From a virus: 32,724 nt of DNA. The notes under the pieces were generated by a model. It searched no databases, was not told the origin of the DNA, and saw only the letters and a list, made by a program, of their open reading frames with translations. Positions 4,387 to 32,724 of the stretch are shown piece after piece (position 1 is the stretch's first letter; the number at the start of each line of letters is the position of its first letter). The stretch lies in IMG/VR virus record IMGVR_UViG_3300011185_000002. One strand, given 5' to 3'. The translations under genes and the position numbers were made by a program.

Positions 4387-4989
4387 ATGACTACTATCTT
4401 TCGCGATTTTCAAATGAAAGCGCAGAGCGTCGACGAAGAGGCGCGTACCGTTGAGGGTTATGCGTCTACCTGGGACATGGACCAAGTTGACGATATTATC
4501 CATTTTGGGGCCTTCCAGAAATCAATCAATGAGCGGTTTAGTGCCGGCAAAGTAAAAGTTCTTTGGCAGCATGCGGACCCGATCGGAATTCCTCTGGAGA
4601 TGGTCGAGGACGACAAAGGTCTCTGGGTAAAGGCAAAGATCTCGAAGACCGCACTGGGTGACGAGGCTCTCCAGTTGGCGAAGGATCGCGTTGTTGATCG
4701 TTTTTCTATCGGCTTCAGCATCCCTAAAGGCAAGGCTGAGATTGACGAGAACGGTATCCGCCACATCTATGAAGCTAAGCTCATAGAGTTCTCACTGGTG
4801 ACATTCGCAGCCAACGAAGCCGCGGTTCTTACTGCTGTCAAGCGCCTGCGGCAGTCCCTGGAAGAGAAAGGCCTGGACCCTGTGACCACTGAAGTCAAAG
4901 ACCCGAAGGAGAAGGACACAGGAGAATTCGACGAGCTGAAGTCCATGCTCGAAGAGTTCAGCACTTTCGCTAAGCATCGGCTGTATTAG
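4387..4989 (+). CDS. Prohead maturation protease (HK97 / S78-like)
   Basis: EGYASTWDMDQVDDIIHFGAFQKSI, VLWQHAD and DRFSIGF match the HK97 prohead protease pattern (His and Ser). The gene lies directly upstream of the capsid gene. Confidence 0.88.
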   Translation: MTTIFRDFQMKAQSVDEEARTVEGYASTWDMDQVDDIIHFGAFQKSINERFSAGKVKVLWQHADPIGIPLEMVEDDKGLWVKAKISKTALGDEALQLAKDRVVDRFSIGFSIPKGKAEIDENGIRHIYEAKLIEFSLVTFAANEAAVLTAVKRLRQSLEEKGLDPVTTEVKDPKEKDTGEFDELKSMLEEFSTFAKHRLY

Positions 4990-5005
4990 TTTAGTGAAAT
5001 AAGTA

Positions 5006-5034
5006 TTGACAAGCGGGGTGCATTCGAAGAGAAT
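5006..5034 (+). promoter_or_regulatory. Candidate sigma70-like promoter upstream of the capsid gene (TTGACA, 17 nt, GAGAAT)
   Basis: There is a perfect -35 hexamer at 5006-5011 and a 4/6 match to the -10 hexamer at 5029-5034. It sits in a 148-bp noncoding gap. Confidence 0.35.
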
Positions 5035-5137
5035 GTACTTCGTCGGCACTCGAAAGAGCCGCCACCACACAGAAAGCCGCACAGATTGCACTTTCCGTGG
5101 CACAAATTTAAACCTAAACTCGAAAGAGGAATATGTC

Positions 5138-8049: not shown

Positions 8050-8472
8050 ATGATTGAAGTTATGAAAGACATCTACGCGAGACTGTCAGCTGACGGGGCA
8101 CTAACCTCTAAGCTCTCAACCTATAAGGCGCTTCCTGCGATCTTCATGGACTGGTCTCAGCAGGTTAACGGGCCCTACCTTGTTCTCACGTACCTGCCCA
8201 CCTCTGAGGTCTACGACACTCAGGTAACGCAGACCCTGCAGGTTGATATCTTCGAAAGGGCTGGCGACTCAATGGGTAGCTACCTTAGCTGCATCAGCAT
8301 TCGGGATGACATCGTGAGAATCCTGGATCGGCAGACATCTCTGGACGGGGTGGAGAACTTGCGCGTATACTATGAAACTGAACAGCCTGTTTCAGATGAT
8401 GACGGACGGTACCGCCGTTACATGGTAACGTTTACCATGCGCTGGAATAGAGCTGCTGACATTCAAGCTTGA
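8050..8472 (+). CDS. Tail terminator / tail-completion protein (DUF3168-like)
   Basis: The product is 140 aa. The N-terminus MIEVMKDIYARLSADGALTS is typical of the gpU/gp11-like family. The gene lies immediately upstream of the tail tube gene. Confidence 0.55.
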   Translation: MIEVMKDIYARLSADGALTSKLSTYKALPAIFMDWSQQVNGPYLVLTYLPTSEVYDTQVTQTLQVDIFERAGDSMGSYLSCISIRDDIVRILDRQTSLDGVENLRVYYETEQPVSDDDGRYRRYMVTFTMRWNRAADIQA

Positions 8473-8491
8473 ATATAGAGAGGGTAACACC

Positions 8492-9052
8492 ATGGCTAGG
8501 AATACTGGCGTAACAACCGAAACCGCTAAGCGCATGATTATGGACGCTGGGGCGATCTACATTAACTACGGCGAGGCCGACGAGGCGCTATTCGGCGCTA
8601 CCCGCGAAGGCGCTGAGTTTACGGTAGAGCAGGATATCCGTGAGATCGAAGTGGACGGCCTCCGGGGCCCCACTAAAGGCTTCCGCCGGATCATTCAGGA
8701 GCATGTTCGTCTGACTGTGAACTTGCTTGAGATGACTGCGGACAACGTTGTCACTTCAATGATCGGGTCAACAAAAACAGTTGATGGGGGTACAAGCGAG
8801 GACGTTATAACTCGCTCACTGTTGATGGGAGACATCGAGTACCTGACTAACATCGCACTGGTGGCCGACTACTCTGGATCATCGGACCCAGTGGTAATCA
8901 TCCTGAAAAATGCGCTGCAAGACGGAGGATTTAGTCTGTCGGCTACCGATCGTGAAGAGTCTACTGCAGAGCTGCAGTTCACTGCTCACATAGACCCAGC
9001 TGGCAACCTGGATGAATCTCCTTTCGAGATCCGCTTCCCTGAAGTTGTTTAA
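8492..9052 (+). CDS. Major tail (tube) protein
   Basis: The product is 186 aa. The gene lies between the tail terminator and the tail chaperones. GAIYINYGE...FGATREGAEFTVEQDIREIEVDGLRGPTKG fits the TP901-1/phi13-type tube pattern. A terminator follows. Confidence 0.7.
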   Translation: MARNTGVTTETAKRMIMDAGAIYINYGEADEALFGATREGAEFTVEQDIREIEVDGLRGPTKGFRRIIQEHVRLTVNLLEMTADNVVTSMIGSTKTVDGGTSEDVITRSLLMGDIEYLTNIALVADYSGSSDPVVIILKNALQDGGFSLSATDREESTAELQFTAHIDPAGNLDESPFEIRFPEVV

Positions 9053-9076
9053 ACTTTGGTAGTGTAATACAATAAG

Positions 9077-9109
9077 GGCTGTGTCTTAACGGGCACGGCC
9101 TTTATTTTA
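9077..9109 (+). terminator. Probable rho-independent terminator after the tail tube gene
   Basis: The hairpin is GGCTGTG-(10-nt loop)-CACGGCC, followed by TTTATTTTAT. Confidence 0.55.
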
Positions 9110-9133
9110 TCCACAAACAAATAGGTGAACGAG

Positions 9134-9478
9134 ATGGCTAACGTACAAGTGCGCAAACTCACTGTCGCAGATGCGCTAAACGTGGCAGAGATTATCGATC
9201 AGACCCTTGAAACAATGGGTACTGATGAGCTCATTAAAATGATGAGTGGGAACAGCACGAAAGAAGTTGGGGTGAAGCTGATGAAAGCTGCTCTTAAGCA
9301 GAGCCGTACCTCAGTATTGAGCTTCCTGGCTGACGTCAACAACATGAAGACTGAGGAGTTCCTTGAGCTAGACGCCGAGGCTATTCCTAAGACGATCCAG
9401 TCAATCCTTAACGACCCCAGGAACTCGGGTTTTTTCGAACAGTTGCGCGGTTTACTGCCGTCCGTGCACAGCCAGTAA
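9134..9478 (+). CDS. Tail assembly chaperone (gpG analogue)
   Basis: This is a small acidic ORF between the tube and tape-measure genes. It ends 40 nt after a slippery heptamer. An AGGTGA RBS lies before the ATG at 9134. The ORF track begins at the GTG at 9125. Confidence 0.75.
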   Translation: MANVQVRKLTVADALNVAEIIDQTLETMGTDELIKMMSGNSTKEVGVKLMKAALKQSRTSVLSFLADVNNMKTEEFLELDAEAIPKTIQSILNDPRNSGFFEQLRGLLPSVHSQ

Positions 9479-17381: not shown

Positions 17382-17412
17382 CCAGTACCTCGTTTGTTTG
17401 TGTGGTGGTGAT

Positions 17413-17440
17413 GCCCGGGTCTTCGGATCCGGGCTTTTTT
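17413..17440 (+). terminator. Rho-independent terminator ending the late/lysis operon
   Basis: The hairpin is GCCCGGGTC-TTCG-GATCCGGGC, followed by TTTTTT. Confidence 0.85.
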
Positions 17441-17487
17441 ATACCTGACTGAAAATAATTAAATGGGCTATTAGCCCGCTCAGGTGG

Positions 17488-17797
17488 ACCTGTGCATTTG
17501 TGCATTCTGGCTGTGCACCTGCTGCACAACGTAAGCCACTGATATTAAAGGGTTTCAGAGACCTGTGCACTTTGTGCATCTGCCTGGTGTGCGTGTGCAC
17601 CTGTGCAGAGGGGTCCGACCAACTCTTTCTTTTTCTTAGTAATAGTATATGTATATATAAACACGGTAAATCGATAAAGAAATTCAATCTCGCGAGCTGC
17701 ACATCTGCTGCACAAAATGCACAGGCCTGAAAACCACTTAAAATACAAGCATTTGCGCCGTGCACCGACTGCACACCCAAAATGCACAGGTGCACAT
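17488..17797. repeat. Iteron module A: a TGTGCA/TGCACA box array in dyad arrangement around an AT-rich core (candidate origin or operator array)
   Basis: Perfect TGTGCA boxes start at 17491, 17499, 17512, 17564, 17573, 17594 and 17602. Perfect reverse-complement TGCACA boxes start at 17523, 17698, 17709, 17718, 17770, 17783 and 17791. The AT-rich core spans about 17620-17690. No credible ORF is present. Confidence 0.8.
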
Positions 17798-17833
17798 ACC
17801 TGTGAATTCCGGCTTTAATCTGTGATATTATTG

Positions 17834-17862
17834 TTGACCCACCTACCTGATAAGCTTACTAT
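17834..17862 (+). promoter_or_regulatory. Candidate sigma70 promoter for the replication operon (TTGACC, 17 nt, TACTAT)
   Basis: The hexamers lie at 17834-17839 and 17857-17862, about 45 nt upstream of the primase-helicase start and just downstream of module A. Confidence 0.5.
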
Positions 17863-17905
17863 AACAACCAGTCGCATACACAAACACGAACACAGAGGGC
17901 ACCTT

Positions 17906-20470
17906 ATGCTTTTCGAACACCACAAAGCTGACTTGAAGCGCTCCGGGCTATCCGACGAAATGATCGCCGCAATGGGGTGCGAGAGCTTCGACTCACAATC
18001 AATCCAGCGCAGGATCTCTGGCGCTTCCAATGGAGCCGCGTCTGACGGCTACTCAATCCCTTACCCTGGGTCTAACGCAGTCCGCTACCGGCTGAGCACC
18101 GGAGCCCAGTCCGGAAGTGATAAGGCTATCCGGTACCTGTCTCCGATCGCTGACGCGTGGGACGTGTACGTGCCTGCAGGGTTCGACAAACTTAGCACCG
18201 ACACACTGCTAATCACAGAAGGGGAGAAGAAAGCCGCAAAGGCTGTTCAGGAAGGTATCCCAGCTATCGCTATCCCGGGCGTGTGGATGTGGAGGGACCC
18301 GGCTATCGAGCGTGACGGGAAGATGAGCGCCGGAACCCCGATCATCCCGCGTATTGCCGAGCTTGCTAAAGGCCGCAAGGTTGTCATACTGGCGGACTCT
18401 GACGCGAAAGCAAATCAGCAGGTCAAGGCTGCTCTTACGTTGCTCGCTAAAGCGATCGCGCATCAAGTTGAGTGTGAGGCTTCCGTCTTTGCTGTCTGCC
18501 CAGCTCCGGCCGCTGACAAAGTCGGACTTGATGACTGGCTGCTCAGCGATGGTACCAGTCCAGTTCACTCCATGCTGGTAGCTGCCGAGGGTTTTGAGAA
18601 TCCTGGGTTCCGCCTGTCAATACCGTACGCCGAGAAGACTGACGGGTCCTACCTCCACTACCTGATCCCGTTCGACGTTAAGAGTAAGCCGATCCTACCT
18701 CCAGTTCTGAAGGAGTATGAGGAGGACGGGGAGACGATGTACAAGGCGACCGGCGCCCCTTACCTGTACCTGAGGCGTAATCTATTAGTGCTTAACCGCA
18801 ACTCAGACGGTGAATACCGCACTAATGACTCCGACGCGCCAGCTGAGGTCCTCTCAGAAGTGGAGGGTGTTACAGACGATCGCAGGGCCATTCTCGCACG
18901 GCTGAAGGCTACCGACCTATCAGAGAAAGAGGGCATTCTGAAATACGGTCTATCCGGGTCCCCTGCGGAGTTCAGCAAGATCTCACGCGCTCAGCGTAAC
19001 GCACGTATGTGCCCGACCGTTCGAGTGGCTGGGGAGAGGGGCTGGCTGAAAGTTGATGGGAGACTGCACTACCTGTACAGCGATTGTGCTGTAACGCCAG
19101 AAGGTGAAGCCCCTGTACTACCAAATCTAACAAACGACCGCGAGGGTGTCCGAACTGCAGGCGCATCCGGTGACTTTGATCGCTGGGCTGACATTGTTGC
19201 CCAACTCGTAGCGACTCACCCAGTCCAAGCCGCTGTAATGGGGTTCGCTGCAAGTTCTGCTGGCCTGTTCTTTGTACCTGACGCGGAGCCCGGTGTTCTG
19301 CATATCTATGGTGACAGCTCGAAGGGCAAGACCACAACGCTGCAGATCGCCGCTTCTCTAATTGGCCGGGCTACCAATCCGCGTGACCCTAGCAGCTGGA
19401 TCAAAGGCTGGCGGACCACTGACAACGGACTTGAACGTCCTTTGGCTGACACAAATCATGCTCCGCTGATGCTAGATGAGATTCACGCGGCTCCTGCGCG
19501 TACTGACTGGCAGGCAACGGCTTATATGATCGCCAACGGTCGCGGCAAAGAGCGTATGAAGCACACGACTGAGGCGCGCAAGACACCAACTTGGGAGCTC
19601 CAGCTACTCAGCTCTGGTGAAGTTTCAATGGGCGAGAAGATCCGCAAATCTGCAAAAGGTGCCGTTCCTGGTGGGCTGGCTTTTCGGGTTATTGATTTGT
19701 ATGCCGGCAATCTGGATCTTGTCGACCTCGGCATTCACGCTGACGCATGGGAAGAGGTGCTCGGGTATCCGGTTAAGTCTGACGCTGAACTGGCAGAAGC
19801 TCTGGAGACTGAGTTCTCGAACAACTACGGGCATTTCTGGCCTCAGCTTATTGGGTACCTTCGGGATTCTGGGGGGTTCAGCTACGCAGAGATCTATGAG
19901 CGCTTCCGTCGACGGGCAATCGCGTACCTGCCAGAAGACGCATCTACTATCGCTCAGCGTCGTACAAAGCATGTTGCATCTGCAATGGCCGGGCTCTACA
20001 CGATGTGCGAGCTGATCGGAATGGCACCGGACAGAGAAGACAAGGACGTTATCGACAGCGCTGAGGAATGGTGCTACAAAAACATGCTGCTCGCTGGGAT
20101 CGAAGATCTGAGCGGTACCGAAGCAGAGAGCATGATCGAGGTGATTACTGCCGAGATCCTTGCGAACGCTCAGCGCTTTTACCGTCCTGGGGTCGACACT
20201 AAAGGCGGGTCTCAGCTGGGCTGGATTGACGAAGACGGGTCTGTATTCTTGCCAGTGAAGACGGGGTGGAGCCAGCTCTGTCAGGAATGTGGGATCGATT
20301 CCGAGAGGGCCCGGGATGCACTGATGAAACAAGGCTGGAAGAAAGGCCGGTACCGGCACCCAGCTTCGGGCTCTGGATCTAACCCGACAACAACGTTGAA
20401 AGCGTTCGGTCTGATGAAATCGCTGGTTTCTAAAGACGAGAATGAGTCTGACGACTTGCAGCCCCTGTAA
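17906..20470 (+). CDS. Bifunctional primase-helicase (N-terminal Toprim domain plus DUF927/SF3-type P-loop NTPase)
   Basis: The Toprim motifs are LLITEGEKKAAKA and VVILADSDAKAN. Walker A is GDSSKGKTT and Walker B is PLMLDEIH. The segment ANGRGKERM is DUF927-like. An AGAGGG RBS precedes the ATG at 17906. Confidence 0.85.
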   Translation: MLFEHHKADLKRSGLSDEMIAAMGCESFDSQSIQRRISGASNGAASDGYSIPYPGSNAVRYRLSTGAQSGSDKAIRYLSPIADAWDVYVPAGFDKLSTDTLLITEGEKKAAKAVQEGIPAIAIPGVWMWRDPAIERDGKMSAGTPIIPRIAELAKGRKVVILADSDAKANQQVKAALTLLAKAIAHQVECEASVFAVCPAPAADKVGLDDWLLSDGTSPVHSMLVAAEGFENPGFRLSIPYAEKTDGSYLHYLIPFDVKSKPILPPVLKEYEEDGETMYKATGAPYLYLRRNLLVLNRNSDGEYRTNDSDAPAEVLSEVEGVTDDRRAILARLKATDLSEKEGILKYGLSGSPAEFSKISRAQRNARMCPTVRVAGERGWLKVDGRLHYLYSDCAVTPEGEAPVLPNLTNDREGVRTAGASGDFDRWADIVAQLVATHPVQAAVMGFAASSAGLFFVPDAEPGVLHIYGDSSKGKTTTLQIAASLIGRATNPRDPSSWIKGWRTTDNGLERPLADTNHAPLMLDEIHAAPARTDWQATAYMIANGRGKERMKHTTEARKTPTWELQLLSSGEVSMGEKIRKSAKGAVPGGLAFRVIDLYAGNLDLVDLGIHADAWEEVLGYPVKSDAELAEALETEFSNNYGHFWPQLIGYLRDSGGFSYAEIYERFRRRAIAYLPEDASTIAQRRTKHVASAMAGLYTMCELIGMAPDREDKDVIDSAEEWCYKNMLLAGIEDLSGTEAESMIEVITAEILANAQRFYRPGVDTKGGSQLGWIDEDGSVFLPVKTGWSQLCQECGIDSERARDALMKQGWKKGRYRHPASGSGSNPTTTLKAFGLMKSLVSKDENESDDLQPL

Positions 20471-25747: not shown

Positions 25748-26253
25748 AATCATTTATAGGCTGTGACCCAGGACTTAGAGGCGCAATCGCAATAGTCAAC
25801 GAGCGTGCTGAACTTATCAGCTGTTTCGACATGCCAGTCAGAGAGATCCGGGGCGTGAAGACGGCGACCGTGAAGAATGAAGTCAATCCCAGTGAGCTGG
25901 TGGCCAAGCTGGATCCAGGCCCGCTTTACGATCTTGAATATGGTATAATTGAGAGAGTCGGGACGCGCCCAAGGCAGGGAATTGCAAGCGCTTTCGGGTT
26001 CGGTGATAGCTTCGGCGCTGCCAGGTCTGTACTCGAATGTGCATGCGCTGGACGGATCGGGGAAGCGAGACCTGCAGACTGGAAGCGTGACCTGGGACTT
26101 GAAACGCTGGATAAAGACGCGTCAATCGAGAAAGCAAAGAAACTTGTATCCGGATCTGAGCAGTTCCTGACCCGGAAGAAAGATCATGACCGGGCTGAAG
26201 CGATATTGCTGGCCTGGATGGCATTGAAGAGGTGGAAAAATGGCAAACGCTAA
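25744..26253 (+). CDS. RuvC-like Holliday junction resolvase
   Basis: The N-terminus FIGCDPGLRGAIAIV carries the catalytic Asp of the RNaseH fold. The C-terminal segment DHDRAEAILLAWMAL is typical of phage RuvC-like resolvases. Confidence 0.7.
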   Translation: MKSFIGCDPGLRGAIAIVNERAELISCFDMPVREIRGVKTATVKNEVNPSELVAKLDPGPLYDLEYGIIERVGTRPRQGIASAFGFGDSFGAARSVLECACAGRIGEARPADWKRDLGLETLDKDASIEKAKKLVSGSEQFLTRKKDHDRAEAILLAWMALKRWKNGKR

Positions 26254-26812
26254 AGCTACGCAGAAGAAAAAGGCGCCTGAAACGGTGCTTAAGGGCAACC
26301 GGCCGGCAGCTGGTGGCGGGATCAAGAAAAAGCCCGGTAAAGGCCGTAATCCAGTGTCTGAGAACCTATTGATGAGTGTCATTGAGCGGATGTGCGAAGG
26401 TGAGAGCCTGCGCCAGATCTGCCAGGACCCTAAAATGCCTTCAGTAGGGACGGTACTTAACTACGCCATGCTCAGGAAAGGTGTGGGGCAGGAATGGGTT
26501 GAGCGCTTTGCTGAGGCGTACCAGATCGCTAAACAGATTCGGGCTGAGGCCTGGGCAGACGAGCTGGTCGGGATTGCAGACGGCACCGCCCCAATCAGTG
26601 AAGACGTACAACGTAACAAGCTGAGGATCGACACGCGGAAATGGCTGCTGAGCAAGCTGATGAAAGAGTACAGTGAAAAGCAAGCTCATGAAATCAGTGG
26701 TCCGGATGGTGGGCCTGTTAAGTCAGAGAGTCAGGTGATGTTATATCTGCCTGACAACAAAAGAAGCTATGAAGACGAGGGAACTGTTGACGAGCCTGGT
26801 TCAGAACAGTAA
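26240..26812 (+). CDS. Terminase small subunit-like HTH protein
   Basis: GESLRQICQDPKMPSVGTVLNY is HTH-like. RNKLRIDTRKWLLSKLM resembles a family I recall being annotated as terminase small subunit in many phages. The gene is not adjacent to terL. Confidence 0.5.
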   Translation: MANAKATQKKKAPETVLKGNRPAAGGGIKKKPGKGRNPVSENLLMSVIERMCEGESLRQICQDPKMPSVGTVLNYAMLRKGVGQEWVERFAEAYQIAKQIRAEAWADELVGIADGTAPISEDVQRNKLRIDTRKWLLSKLMKEYSEKQAHEISGPDGGPVKSESQVMLYLPDNKRSYEDEGTVDEPGSEQ

Positions 26813-28717: not shown

Positions 28718-29416
28718 ATGCGAGTACTAATTGCATTTGAATCCAGCGGCGTAGTCAGGGAGGCTTTCAGGAGGCTCGGGCATGACGCATGGAGCTGTGA
28801 TCTTCAGCAGGCCGACGATGGGAGTGAGCATCATATTCAAGGGGATGTGATGAGGATCCTTGATGCTGGATGGGACTTGATGATCGCACACCCACCGTGC
28901 ACTTACCTGACTAGCTCGGCAGCGTGGGCGTTTGGGGATGGCCCATACCATCAGAAGGTTAGACCAGAAACCTTGGTAGGTGCAGCCAGGAGAGAGGCCA
29001 GAGAAGAGGCTTTGCGTATGGTGCAGGCATTATTAGAGGCACCTATAAAGCGGATCGCTATTGAGAACCCGTCGGGGTCTATAGGTACTCGAATCCGTAA
29101 AGCAGACCAGTATATCCAGGCGTATGACTTTGGCGAGGATGCCAGTAAGAAGACAGGACTATGGCTCAAGGGCTTAGATCCGATCAAGGGGGAACACTAC
29201 GTTCAGCCACGCTGGGTATGCTGCGGCATGACTCTGCCTGATGGGGTTGGGCGGTATGGGTGCCCAAACTGCTGCGGTGATGAGACCCCTAAGCCGAGAT
29301 GGGCAAACCAAACCCAAAGCGGGCAGAGCAACCTCGGACCTGCTAAAGACCGGTGGAAGGTCAGATCTAAAACCTATCAAGGCATTGCTGATGCGATGGC
29401 TAAGCATTGGGGGTGA
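28718..29416 (+). CDS. Short cytosine-C5 methyltransferase-like protein (232 aa) with a Cys-rich C-terminal segment
   Basis: The motif I-like segment is VLIAFESSGVV, the motif IV-like segment is AHPPCTYL, the motif VI-like segment is IAIENPSG, and the motif VIII-like segment is QAYDFGEDASKKTGLW. The C-terminal segment is CCGMTLPDGVGRYGCPNCCG. No clear target-recognition domain or motifs IX/X were seen. Confidence 0.5.
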   Translation: MRVLIAFESSGVVREAFRRLGHDAWSCDLQQADDGSEHHIQGDVMRILDAGWDLMIAHPPCTYLTSSAAWAFGDGPYHQKVRPETLVGAARREAREEALRMVQALLEAPIKRIAIENPSGSIGTRIRKADQYIQAYDFGEDASKKTGLWLKGLDPIKGEHYVQPRWVCCGMTLPDGVGRYGCPNCCGDETPKPRWANQTQSGQSNLGPAKDRWKVRSKTYQGIADAMAKHWG

Positions 29417-29465: not shown

Positions 29466-29941
29466 TGTGCGTGTGCACTTTGTGCAGCTGCGCTGTGCAA
29501 TCGGTCGAGTTTGTGCACTTCGGATCCTTGCAAGCGCACATGTATAAATTTTGATCAATCTTATGCTAACCGTAAGTGACTGTTTTTAAAGGGTTTGTGC
29601 ACCTGTGCATTTTGGGTGTGCAGTCGGTGCACGACGCAAGTACCTGATTCTATTGAAGTTTTTCAGTTTGTGCACTTTGTGCAGCAGCTGCGCGATTTGT
29701 GCACCTGTGCAGTGGTAAGGGTTCGCCCTACTTTTTTTAATTTCTTAAGATATATATGAGTATATGAATTAAATAAGGGTCTCATGCGACGTCAAAACTT
29801 TCGTGTTATGCACATGATGCTGCACAAAGTGCACAGATCCTGAAAACCCTTTAGTATCAATAGTTTACGCCGTGCACCGACTGCACACCCAAAATGCACA
29901 GGTGCACATGCCTAGCAAAATCAATGACTTACACTGGTGCA
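29466..29941. repeat. Iteron module B, a paralogue of module A with an extra internal block that creates a perfect 38-bp inverted repeat
   Basis: Perfect TGTGCA boxes start at 29472, 29481, 29494, 29512, 29596, 29604, 29617, 29669, 29678, 29698 and 29706. Perfect TGCACA boxes start at 29809, 29821, 29830, 29882, 29895 and 29903. The AT-rich core spans about 29722-29800. The segment 29596-29633 is the exact reverse complement of 29871-29908. Confidence 0.85.
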
Positions 29942-29996: not shown

Positions 29997-30024
29997 TTGC
30001 ATTAAACTAACAAGCGCGTATAGT
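29997..30024 (+). promoter_or_regulatory. Candidate sigma70 promoter (TTGCAT, 16 nt, TATAGT) for the 30069-31784 operon
   Basis: The hexamers lie at 29997-30002 and 30019-30024, 45 nt upstream of the ATG at 30069. Confidence 0.5.
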
Positions 30025-30068: not shown

Positions 30069-30464
30069 ATGGAATTTGACTTTCACACCGCGACTCTGAT
30101 CGATATCGACGTACTTGACCACACCCGCACATTCGAGGCTCACCACGATGACGGTGAGTGCGATACCACAGCTATCGTTAAGGTCACACTGCGCGATAAG
30201 ACCGGGTTCCAGCTGGAGTTTTTTTGCAGCGCTAAATCTGTGAATCACAGCGACTCGGACTGCGCGAGTGAGATCCACTACTACATCAGCCGCGAGGAGT
30301 ACCCTGACGTTCTGATCAACGGCATCCCCGAGCACAACCGCCTTGAGCTCGGCACTTGCCGCCTGTTCATTGACACGAACAACATCGGCGTCTGGCAGCA
30401 TCAAGTAAAGAACTGCCTGCTGAACCGCGATGTTGACGAGATCATTTTCTGGGACCAGGCATAA
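30069..30464 (+). CDS. Strongly acidic hypothetical protein (131 aa)
   Basis: An ACAGGAG RBS is present. By my count there are about 25 Asp/Glu against about 10 Lys/Arg. It is the first gene after the promoter. Confidence 0.6.
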   Translation: MEFDFHTATLIDIDVLDHTRTFEAHHDDGECDTTAIVKVTLRDKTGFQLEFFCSAKSVNHSDSDCASEIHYYISREEYPDVLINGIPEHNRLELGTCRLFIDTNNIGVWQHQVKNCLLNRDVDEIIFWDQA

Positions 30465-30516: not shown

Positions 30517-30957
30517 ATGAACACCAATATCAACGAGCTCACCGAAAAGTTCACCCTGGATACCATCGAGATCCGCCAGCATGCCGCACGCCCTCTCCAG
30601 GATGGTATGCTGAAAACCTACGCGATCGGCGTGATGCAATTCCGCATGCTCGAAGAGCCCAGTGTCCGCCTCCGGTTCCCGGTCTACGCTGAGTCTGACC
30701 TGCACATGTACATTGCCAGCCCAGAGGATTTGCGTTATGACGTGATGCTCGCTGTCGACGTTTGTAACGACCTCTTCATGGGAGTCACTAAGAGCACGAT
30801 CAACGATCCGGAATCTGTCCGTGAATACATCGAGAGCTGCATCCGATTCGAGCAATTCTTTGAGGCTGAGCTACGCGCAGTTGAGAACCTGCCGATCGAG
30901 AATCTCTCCGGAATTGTTGTTGACCATGATCCGGGATCGGATTACTATAACAACTGA
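30517..30957 (+). CDS. Acidic hypothetical protein (146 aa)
   Basis: A TGAGGT RBS is present. By my count there are about 26 Asp/Glu against about 12 Lys/Arg. Confidence 0.6.
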   Translation: MNTNINELTEKFTLDTIEIRQHAARPLQDGMLKTYAIGVMQFRMLEEPSVRLRFPVYAESDLHMYIASPEDLRYDVMLAVDVCNDLFMGVTKSTINDPESVREYIESCIRFEQFFEAELRAVENLPIENLSGIVVDHDPGSDYYNN

Positions 30958-31836: not shown

Positions 31837-32724
31837 ATGCCGATCATCAAACCACAAAAAGGACCGCAGGAAGCTTTCATGGCCAGTCCTGCTGACATCG
31901 TAATCTATGGCGGGGCAGCCGGGGGCGGAAAGACTTTCGCGCTACTGATGGAAGCGATCCGACACATCAACAACAAGCGATTTCGTTGCGCTATCTTTCG
32001 ACGCACTCACACGCAGGTAAAACAGCCTGGCGGTCTCTGGGATGAGTCGGGTGAGCTTTATCCGAAGCTCGGGGGCGTGCCGAATAGTTCCGACCTGTTC
32101 TGGCGGTTTCCCTCTGGTATGAAAGTAACTTTCAATTACTTGCAGACGGCAACTGACATGTATCAGTACCAGGGTGCACAGATACCGCTGATTATGTTCG
32201 ACGAGGTGACGCATTTCAGTGAGACGCAATTCTTCTACATGGTCTCGCGTCTGCGATCTGCATCGGGGGTTAAGGGGTACATCCGTGCGACATGCAACCC
32301 GGATCCAGATTCCTGGGTAGCCAGGTTCATTAACTGGTGGATCGGGGAAGACGGGTACCCAGATTCCTCCCGGGCTGGAGTCATCCGATGGTTTGTTAGG
32401 CGTGGTGACGACATCGTCTGGGCTGATAGCCCAAAAGAATTAACGGATCAATTCGGGCCTAAGGCAAAGCCTAAGTCTGTGGCGTTCATCCCGGCAACCC
32501 TGGCGGACAATAAGATTCTTATGGAGAAAGACCCAGAGTACGAGTCTAACCTCGAATCCCTTCCACTGGTCGAGCGTGAGCAGCTTCTAGGTGGCAACTG
32601 GAAGATTAAGCCAGCCCAGGGTATGTATTTCCGCGGCGATCAATTCATGTACTGTGATCGCCATGAACTCCCGAAGCTTCGGCGGATGATTCGGTACTGG
32701 GATAGGGCAGCAACTGAACCCACT
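31837..32724 (+). CDS. terL: Terminase large subunit, N-terminal ATPase part. It runs off the window end and continues at base 124 (that is, into 1..594).
   Basis: There is an in-frame stop at 31816 and an ATG at 31837. The N-terminus contains PQKGPQEAFMASPADIVIYGGAAGGGKT (Walker A). Walker B is IPLIMFDEVTH, and ATCNPD is also present. No stop occurs before 32724. Confidence 0.92.
   Translation, partial: MPIIKPQKGPQEAFMASPADIVIYGGAAGGGKTFALLMEAIRHINNKRFRCAIFRRTHTQVKQPGGLWDESGELYPKLGGVPNSSDLFWRFPSGMKVTFNYLQTATDMYQYQGAQIPLIMFDEVTHFSETQFFYMVSRLRSASGVKGYIRATCNPDPDSWVARFINWWIGEDGYPDSSRAGVIRWFVRRGDDIVWADSPKELTDQFGPKAKPKSVAFIPATLADNKILMEKDPEYESNLESLPLVEREQLLGGNWKIKPAQGMYFRGDQFMYCDRHELPKLRRMIRYWDRAATEPT
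32602..32724. repeat. Terminal overlap, identical to 1-123
   Basis: Direct comparison. Confidence 0.95.

Follow-up and report, generated by a model that had tools for sequence, protein, structure and literature searches.

A probable phage origin of the kind opened by self-loading helicases

The closest described relatives of the element discussed here are the replication origins of the staphylococcal pathogenicity islands (SaPIs), in which 6-12 iterons of 5-6 nt are split evenly between the two sides of an AT-rich centre, the two halves pointing in opposite directions (PMC9371898). The C-terminal winged helix of the SaPI Rep protein recognises these iterons, its binding and melting of the DNA are independent of ATP, and two hexamers are thought to load themselves (PMC9371898). 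The DUF927 helicase Cch is related to the Rep protein of SaPIbov1, and the C-terminal domain of Cch2 binds direct repeats at its own origin; in the eukaryotic viral helicases of superfamily 3 (SF3), such as SV40 T antigen and papillomavirus E1, the origin-binding domain is N-terminal (PMC7581432). Additionally, in the alpha protein of P4 a single polypeptide has a primase, a helicase and, at its C-terminus, a winged-helix domain for origin binding (PMC2777425). Here we describe an array of short boxes, module A, that lies directly upstream of a primase-helicase gene in the viral record IMGVR_UViG_3300011185_000002 (the window, that is, the whole stretch of 32,724 nt that was analysed), and a second copy of it, module B. 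We consider the anatomy of these modules, their conservation, their co-occurrence with one helicase family, and the homology and fold of that helicase.

From these comparisons, we consider it probable that modules A and B are iteron-type bidirectional origins for the phage's own self-loading primase-helicase. An earlier note on this DNA had already read module A as an origin for the adjoining gene, and that reading gains support from the co-occurrence of array and helicase, from the change of the box in distant homologues and from the homology of the protein to self-loading initiators. The layout is already known from the pathogenicity islands, the extra features here being the duplication, the two-tier arms and the fused primase.

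Anatomy of the two modules

Module A lies inside a non-coding gap of 524 bp (17382-17905), bounded on the left by the terminator of the lysis operon and on the right by the ATG of the primase-helicase gene at 17906, just as the earlier note had delimited it. Within 306 bp (17491-17796), this gap holds 14 perfect copies of the hexamer TGTGCA or its complement TGCACA, where chance would provide some 0.15-0.2, and two independent one-mismatch copies (TGTGCG at 17588 and CGTGCA at 17759); the counts of the earlier note were thus reproduced, as was its expectation of about 0.15 (0.15-0.18 on recalculation). The real core of the box is GTGCA, set within yTGTGCA(C). In the whole window there are 40 copies of TGTGCA/TGCACA against 19.45 expected from shuffles, and 31 of the 40 fall in two intergenic clusters, with 14 copies at 17491-17796 and 17 at 29472-29908. 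The remaining nine compare with 7.6 expected under a Markov model, so that the box is not depleted elsewhere in the genome. The array itself is real and far beyond chance.

Boxes of the left arm lie on the plus strand and those of the right arm on the minus strand. The rightward and leftward orientation given in the earlier note therefore holds overall, but not for one core-proximal box in each outer cluster, which is inverted or palindromic (TGTGCA-N5-TGCACA at 17512-17528; CGTGCAC at 17759-17765). For the pairs, a periodicity of 8-10 bp had been noted; paired boxes start 8-9 bp apart, and other neighbouring boxes 11-13 bp apart. Each arm has 3-5 boxes in an inner cluster next to the core and four in an outer cluster, the two being separated by a spacer that measures about 35 bp in module A. 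The exact pattern of the outer cluster, TGTGCA-N2-TGTGCA-N7-TGTGCA-N4/5-TGCAC, has four occurrences in the window, and shuffled sequences contained none.

The AT-rich core between the arms, for which the earlier note gave a length of about 70 bp, extends over some 90 bp with 20-22% GC, and its AT-richness is indeed the most pronounced of the genome: the 60-nt window from 17626 has 22% GC, the genome minimum. In fact, the two lowest-GC 60-nt windows of the genome are the two module cores (22% and 23%), the next lowest having 32%. When taken as single-stranded DNA, module A folds into a long hairpin (z = -5.9), which is a by-product of the dyad itself; since the boxes do not vary, covariation provides no test of structure, and Rfam gave no match at the gathering threshold anywhere in the window.

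Module B (29466-29908) is a second and larger copy of the same design, with 17 perfect boxes, 12 kb from module A and about 9 kb downstream of the primase-helicase gene. The right arms of both modules are 81% identical over 96 nt. Module B is conserved in two relatives, L124 and L144, between homologues of the genes that flank it in the window.

The spacers of both modules have a further characteristic in common. The consensus of IHF, WATCARNNNNTTR, has six matches in the window against 1.4 expected, and four of the six belong to the modules (17532-17544 and 29637-29649 on the minus strand, 29855-29867 and 29919-29931 on the plus strand), in mirror orientation, each within or adjoining a spacer that separates an outer from an inner cluster. 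Similar IHF-like sites are found in the modules of L124/L144 and L094, and not in those of L093, L001 and L095, while a related motif, CATTGAT-TTAAAAG, stands ahead of box clusters in the more distant L163 and L188. These positions suggest that a host bending protein may help to fold the array.

Conservation in close relatives

Relatives were found in metagenomes through the primase-helicase. The search of related phages that the earlier note had suggested, for the same box architecture upstream of DUF927 primase-helicases, found it in five of them: same-position arrays of 12-17 TGTGCA boxes occur in L093 (helicase 79% identical), L157 (81%), L001 (59%), L094 (56%) and L158 (56%), between the lysis genes and the helicase gene wherever the contig has both flanks. 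The helicase genes of L157 and L158 are directly preceded by 16-17 boxes. When modules A and B were aligned with the arrays of L093, L094 and L001 (helicases 56-79% identical), a footprint emerged, as 81% of the box columns are invariant against 10% of the other columns (Fisher p ~3e-39), and pairwise identity is 88-97% in the boxes and 38-58% outside them. The CT-rich tract and the TATAT motif of the core are also conserved in relatives.

As there are two intergenic copies of an element of 320-440 bp with inverted arms of about 115 nt, the modules could in principle be copies of a small mobile element, similar to a miniature inverted-repeat transposable element, or of another selfish repeat with no function for the phage. 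However, modules A and B are 97% identical in the box columns and 47% elsewhere, which indicates old copies under selection on the boxes and not recent transposition. Both positions are, moreover, conserved in relatives with 44-81% protein identity, and neither target-site duplications nor a transposase was seen. We regard this explanation as extremely improbable.

The position of the array is more flexible than its boxes. In L095, whose helicase is 49% identical, there is no array upstream of the helicase gene; one lies 7.4 kb downstream, at the position of module B and downstream of the small terminase gene. Its boxes are CCGTGCAC, and all 16 GTGCAC sites of the locus are within that single gap. 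In L094, module A is present and no B-type module is found within the 18 kb from the lysis genes to the large terminase, this contig being incomplete. With only A in L094 and only B in L095, within the DNA available from incomplete contigs, either module alone seems to be enough, and the two copies are probably redundant rather than interdependent. Such flexibility of position across relatives matches what is expected of a cis-acting origin.

Arrays beside distant helicase homologues

The GTGCA core is constant among helicases that are 49-100% identical, and the boxes differ at 27-35% identity, where the homologues have arrays with the same grammar and other boxes. In L096 the box is TGGTGACA/TGTCACCA, with 12 copies around an AT-rich stretch, and in L097 it is TGCCGACA, with 11 copies. 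Other lineages use GTCACCA (L162), GGTGCTACC (L163), GGTGGAACA (L188), CCTCACC (L189), TGTTCC (L190) and GTGGGC (L195). Inspection of these latter loci showed 2-4 boxes per cluster, repeated about every 8-10 bp, with the clusters opposed to each other and with a separate box for each lineage; in L162 and L163 the clusters flank clearly AT-rich cores. These arrays are directly upstream or directly downstream of the helicase gene, being immediately downstream in the shorter, unfused homologues L188, L189, L190 and L195. Two different arrays are present in L188, with the ranges 777-1073 and 4890-5070: CGACGG, which has 16 copies and is located 1.9 kb upstream of the helicase gene, and GGTGGAACA, which has about 12 and is immediately downstream of it.

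Further helicase loci were obtained from metagenomes with a 10-sequence alignment of the family, a 15-sequence alignment being too diverse for this search. A scan that assumed no motif was made of those of at least 3 kb (n=63) and of 80 control viral loci. In 13 of the 63 helicase loci, some 6-mer reached 10 or more copies in a stretch of 400 bp; none of the 80 controls had such a 6-mer, the maximum there being 8. Additionally, when 40 open reading frames of the window were compared by tblastn with six array-bearing relatives, the primase-helicase was the sole protein found in all six; PolA was found in three, the 62-aa helix-turn-helix (HTH) protein in one or two, and the small terminase in phages only. 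Array and helicase family thus occur together in phages, on a plasmid-like contig and on other contigs.

The plasmid-like contig is L096, with genes for a type IV secretion system, a relaxase and PolA, in which no window-type terminase or structural gene was detected. This conjugative-plasmid-like contig (type IV secretion system, relaxase, ArdC) has a primase-helicase and a PolA that are 33% and 34% identical to those of the window and divergently transcribed. Beside the PolA gene, a 1.1-kb gap (8084-9226) contains the TGGTGACA array, at a distance of about 1.2 kb upstream of the gene for the helicase. As L096 combines a homologous primase-helicase and PolA with an array, phage and plasmid share a replication module.

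This contig also bears on the possibility that the modules are packaging (pac) sites, where the small terminase would bind both arms and the DNA would be cut in the core, as in pacL/pacC/pacR of SPP1. Module B and the only module of L095 do lie between the genes for the Sf6-type small terminase and the large terminase, and the unrelated contig L074 has CCTGTGCA arrays directly upstream of a gene similar to those of small terminases. By contrast, module A is far from the terminase genes, 8.4 kb upstream of the small terminase gene (26240-26812), and there are two copies per genome instead of the single site that would be expected in or next to that gene. Helicase homologues have the same architecture beside them on the plasmid-like contig, with its lack of detected window-type terminase or structural genes, and the small terminase is common only to the phage relatives and not to all array-bearing loci. 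A role in packaging seems to us very improbable indeed.

The lineage specificity of the box is relevant to another explanation, in which a host factor of the DnaA, NtrC or nucleoid-protein type binds the boxes, or the boxes are a partition (centromere) site. In its favour, arrays of GTGCAC-type boxes also exist in unrelated viral contigs, and the IHF-like sites suggest that a host protein is involved. However, members of one helicase lineage have a common box and other lineages have other boxes, which fits a binder encoded by the element. DnaA-box matches in the window are at the level of chance (7 vs 6.2), with none clustered in module A, and no member of the ParA/ParB families was found among the Pfam and PHROG matches of some 21 proteins of the window, the majority of them encoded in the replication and early regions. 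A host factor or a partition function is, in our opinion, very unlikely.

Scans were also made for the boxes alone. With TGTGCACCTGTGCA, 91 loci were obtained from IMG/VR, mostly chance matches, and arrays were present only in L074, L059, L035 and L053. These are CCTGTGCA(C) arrays (L074 2671-3050, L059 100-420, L053 7930-8060, L035 1300-1440), and no protein shared with the window could be detected in these contigs; the boxes of L074 diverge from an AT-rich core instead of converging on it, and are directly upstream of an apparent small-terminase HTH gene. A viral scan with the four-box pattern recovered the true relatives L124, L133 and L144, and the same pattern gave no convincing prophage in a genome scan. 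The viral scan also returned a separate family of gut phages, in which tandem units of 57 bp adjoin a DnaD-like gene; these units were set aside as not homologous to the modules of the window. The contigs of this large group are found among L119-L156 from IMG/VR (many of sample 3300045988), together with L106 and L116 (contigs of metagenome-assembled genomes of Faecalibacterium and Ruminococcus), where the units have GTGCAC boxes and the adjoining gene is apparently of DnaD type; nine of these contigs share with the window only a methyltransferase homologue. It is probably a different iteron-origin family that has the GTGCAC core in common by chance.

The primase-helicase as the candidate binder

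In agreement with the earlier note, which had assigned Toprim and DUF927 domains to the adjoining gene, Pfam detects DUF3854 (Toprim-like) and DUF927 (E=8.6e-33) in the primase-helicase, and these two only; D5_N, Primase_Cterm and DnaG-type domains were not found by Pfam in this protein. Its only sequence relatives among solved structures are two, the SCCmec helicase Cch (5dgk, E=6e-10) and a SaPI protein (8tch, E=1.4e-4). The AlphaFold model of residues 610-854 (pLDDT 84) contains a bundle of helices and, after it, a strand-helix-helix-hairpin unit such as is typically seen in winged helices, and its best match by Foldseek is the C-terminal region of Cch (5dgk, probability 1.0, E=2.6e-3), after which come weak matches to winged-helix DNA-binding domains. 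The winged-helix segment is almost constant among the relatives with TGTGCA boxes and diverged in the lineages with other boxes, a comparison that is qualitative, since the whole proteins diverge too.

The other candidate binder is the 62-aa HTH_17 protein, which in the window, L093 and L095 is encoded after the helicase. Either this protein or an autoregulating helicase could use the boxes as a multi-operator region to control the downstream promoters, with no role in replication, an alternative that the earlier note had also raised. Both modules are between a terminator or T-run and a promoter, and the initiators of iteron plasmids often regulate their own genes, so a secondary regulatory role for the initiator is possible. 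The replication operon's promoter, TTGACC-N17-TACTAT, which had been placed about 40 bp downstream, is in fact found 38 bp after the last box, and it is conserved in L093 and L094. However, the boxes stop 38 bp upstream of its -35 element and do not overlap it. An extended form of this promoter, ATTrTTGTTGACC-N17-TACTATAACAAC, exists in two copies, one before the primase-helicase gene (17827-17868) and the other, near-identical, before the Sak single-strand-annealing gene (30913-30954), and there are no boxes near the latter. Furthermore, the helicase gene of L095 has no array upstream of it, and in three array-bearing relatives, L094, L096 and L097, the search for an HTH_17 protein next to the helicase detected none. 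A dyad of 14-19 boxes whose centre is the genome's most AT-rich DNA is also unlike known operator layouts. Consequently, a purely regulatory function appears poorly supported, and we consider it improbable.

A model for initiation at the modules

If the modules are origins for the primase-helicase, the yTGTGCA(C) boxes would be the binding sites of the C-terminal winged helix of the DUF3854-DUF927 protein. There are 7-9 boxes per arm, in two clusters, and the arms face each other, and we therefore propose that one helicase hexamer would assemble on each arm. Both hexamers would jointly melt the 90-bp core (20-22% GC), load on the single strands and move apart; the Toprim domain would then provide primers, to be extended by the family-A DNA polymerase of the phage. 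The IHF-like sites of the spacers may bend the DNA and fold the outer clusters back onto the complex.

Several observations weigh against this model or limit it. Binding by the C-terminal domain, assembly of a double hexamer, melting and origin firing are steps that we infer by homology with SaPI Rep, Cch2 and P4 alpha, and the assignment of the C-terminal winged helix is based on a model, the E-value given by Foldseek (2.6e-3) being modest. In 50 of the 63 metagenomic helicase loci there is no array of at least 10 copies in the available DNA. The predicted recognition helices of L188 and L189 are near-identical and their boxes differ (GGTGAGG in L189), so that the specificity for the box cannot be read from the recognition helix alone. 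The SaPI origin is immediately downstream of rep, and the modules described here are upstream of the gene or kilobases away. Finally, GC skew was rejected as evidence for an origin: it is uninformative in this genome, where a single strand carries every gene and the composition of the boxes themselves accounts for the local maxima at the cores.

A more ambitious version of the model can be formulated, although we think it rather unlikely to be correct as a whole. In it, the modules would be two interchangeable full origins at operon boundaries with a double duty: besides firing replication, they might insulate the late, replication and early-recombination operons from one another in transcription, or set its timing, with host IHF folding the two-tier array around each hexamer. 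More broadly, the lineage boxes beside DUF927 helicases would represent a readable code of winged-helix and iteron specificity that sets the compatibility of mobile elements.

Comparison with other origins

The modules resemble the SaPI Rep/Cch system in the helicase, a DUF927 homologue (5dgk, 8tch) whose C-terminal fold matches that of Cch, and in the DNA, where short repeats of 5-8 bp form two opposed sets that flank an AT-rich centre, the origin being next to the helicase gene. There are, however, clear differences. The element is a 32.6-kb tailed phage and not a satellite of Gram-positive bacteria, and its helicase is fused to a Toprim-type primase of the DUF3854 family. Each of the two modules per genome has 14-19 boxes in a two-tier arrangement of outer and inner clusters, with IHF-like spacers, while SaPIs have 6-12 iterons.

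The order of primase, helicase and winged helix in a single polypeptide is the same as in P4. In P4 there are two separated cis sites, ori and crr, with the same short iteron, TGTTCACC, and both sites are required. This iteron resembles the TGTCACCA and TGTTCC(ACC) boxes of some of the distant relatives described above. By contrast with P4, the helicase here is of the DUF927/Cch type, with no P4-type Pfam domains detected in it, and the relatives carry either module alone (on incomplete contigs), whereas P4 needs both ori and crr. Two distant regions with the same initiator-binding repeats beside AT-rich DNA are also present in the Bacillus phage SPP1 (oriL and oriR). SPP1, however, initiates with G38P, a separate replisome organiser by which a loader and a helicase of DnaB type are recruited, and not with a self-loading primase-helicase.

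The earlier note had compared the array with the origins of SV40 T antigen and papillomavirus E1. These are functional analogues only, as inverted short initiator boxes flank a region that can be melted and the initiator helicase assembles as a double hexamer, but there is no detectable homology, and the SaPI Rep/Cch family is the closest precedent. An origin dependent on DnaA or of the lambda type does not match, with DnaA boxes at the level of chance and an intergenic module; the O iterons of lambda are of 19 bp and inside the initiator gene.

Genomic setting

The genome is phage-like and circularly assembled, with 32,601 bp: bases 1-123 recur at 32602-32724, and this terminal overlap of 123 nt is the basis for the circular assembly. 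The plus strand carries all genes of the window. The phage is a tailed one, probably of aquatic proteobacteria; its portal protein is ~28% identical to those of marine gammaproteobacterial siphophages. Megablast of the region against deposited phages gave no match, and searches at the protein level returned only distant relatives among them, with less than 31% identity for the primase-helicase and less than 27% for PolA.

Some neighbouring genes deserve mention. The nuclease domain of the large terminase is encoded at 22-594 of the circular assembly, which means that its gene wraps round the assembly junction; it is flanked by the genes for Sak and a YqaJ exonuclease (ends 1-594 and ~31.8-32.7 kb). 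The Sf6-type small terminase gene (26240-26812) is ~5 kb upstream of that of the large terminase, within the replication module, and module B is between both. A DNA methyltransferase gene (PHROG 757; 28718-29416) is directly upstream of module B. The promoter-like element downstream of module B (29997-30024) was not listed by the consensus promoter scan. The coordinates of the modules and of the features around them are collected in Table 1.

Table 1. Features of modules A and B and of their surroundings (positions in the window).
Feature	Position	Strand	Description
Intrinsic terminator, end of lysis/late operon	17413..17441	+	9-bp GC-rich stem (hairpin 17413-17434) plus T-run
Module A left outer cluster	17491..17528	+	Boxes 17491+, 17499+, 17512+, 17523-; four-box unit conserved in relatives
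Module A left spacer element	17532..17555	-	IHF-consensus match TATCAGTGGCTTA (17532-17544, minus), then TTAAAGGGTTT (17545-17555)
Module A left inner cluster	17564..17607	+	Boxes 17564, 17573, 17588 (TGTGCG), 17594 and 17602, all +
Module A AT-rich core, presumed DNA-unwinding element	17608..17697		CT-rich tract CAACTCTTTCTTTTTCTT (17620-17637), then TATATGTATATATAAA (17646-17661)
Module A right inner cluster	17698..17723	-	Boxes 17698, 17709 and 17718, all -
Module A right outer cluster	17759..17796	-	CGTGCAC 17759, boxes 17770, 17783 and 17791; mirror of left outer cluster
Promoter of replication operon	17834..17862	+	Sigma-70 type, TTGACC-N17-TACTAT; 38 bp past last box, no box overlap
Primase-helicase gene, 854 aa	17906..20470	+	DUF3854 Toprim-like N-terminus, DUF927 helicase, C-terminal helical plus predicted winged-helix domain (~610-854); proposed initiator
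HTH_17 protein gene, 62 aa	20512..20700	+	Rival candidate binder; detected in some array-bearing relatives and not in others
Module B extra distal left cluster	29466..29517	+	Boxes 29466 (one mismatch), 29472, 29481, 29494 and 29512
Module B left arm	29596..29711	+	Outer cluster 29596-29632, IHF-like site 29637-29649 (minus), inner cluster 29669-29711
Module B AT-rich core	29712..29806		60-nt window from 29728 has 23% GC, second lowest of genome
Module B right arm	29809..29908	-	Inner cluster 29809-29835, IHF-like site 29855-29867 (+), outer cluster 29871-29908
Promoter-like element before 131-aa open reading frame (30069-30464)	29997..30024	+	TTGCAT-N16-TATAGT, read from the sequence; conserved in L124/L144

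Significance

The modules and the primase-helicase would represent a concrete and testable pair of origin and initiator for an uncultured phage lineage that has no close deposited phage. The two-tier arms and the duplication of the modules raise the question of why a genome of 32 kb keeps two origins. In a broader sense, the design known from SaPIs, with iterons, an AT-rich core and a self-loading helicase, appears to reach tailed phages and plasmid-like elements of other bacteria, here with a fused primase. The comparative set of about a dozen helicase lineages, each with a box of its own, may serve as a start for the study of how C-terminal winged helices read DNA and for the prediction of origins in metagenomes.

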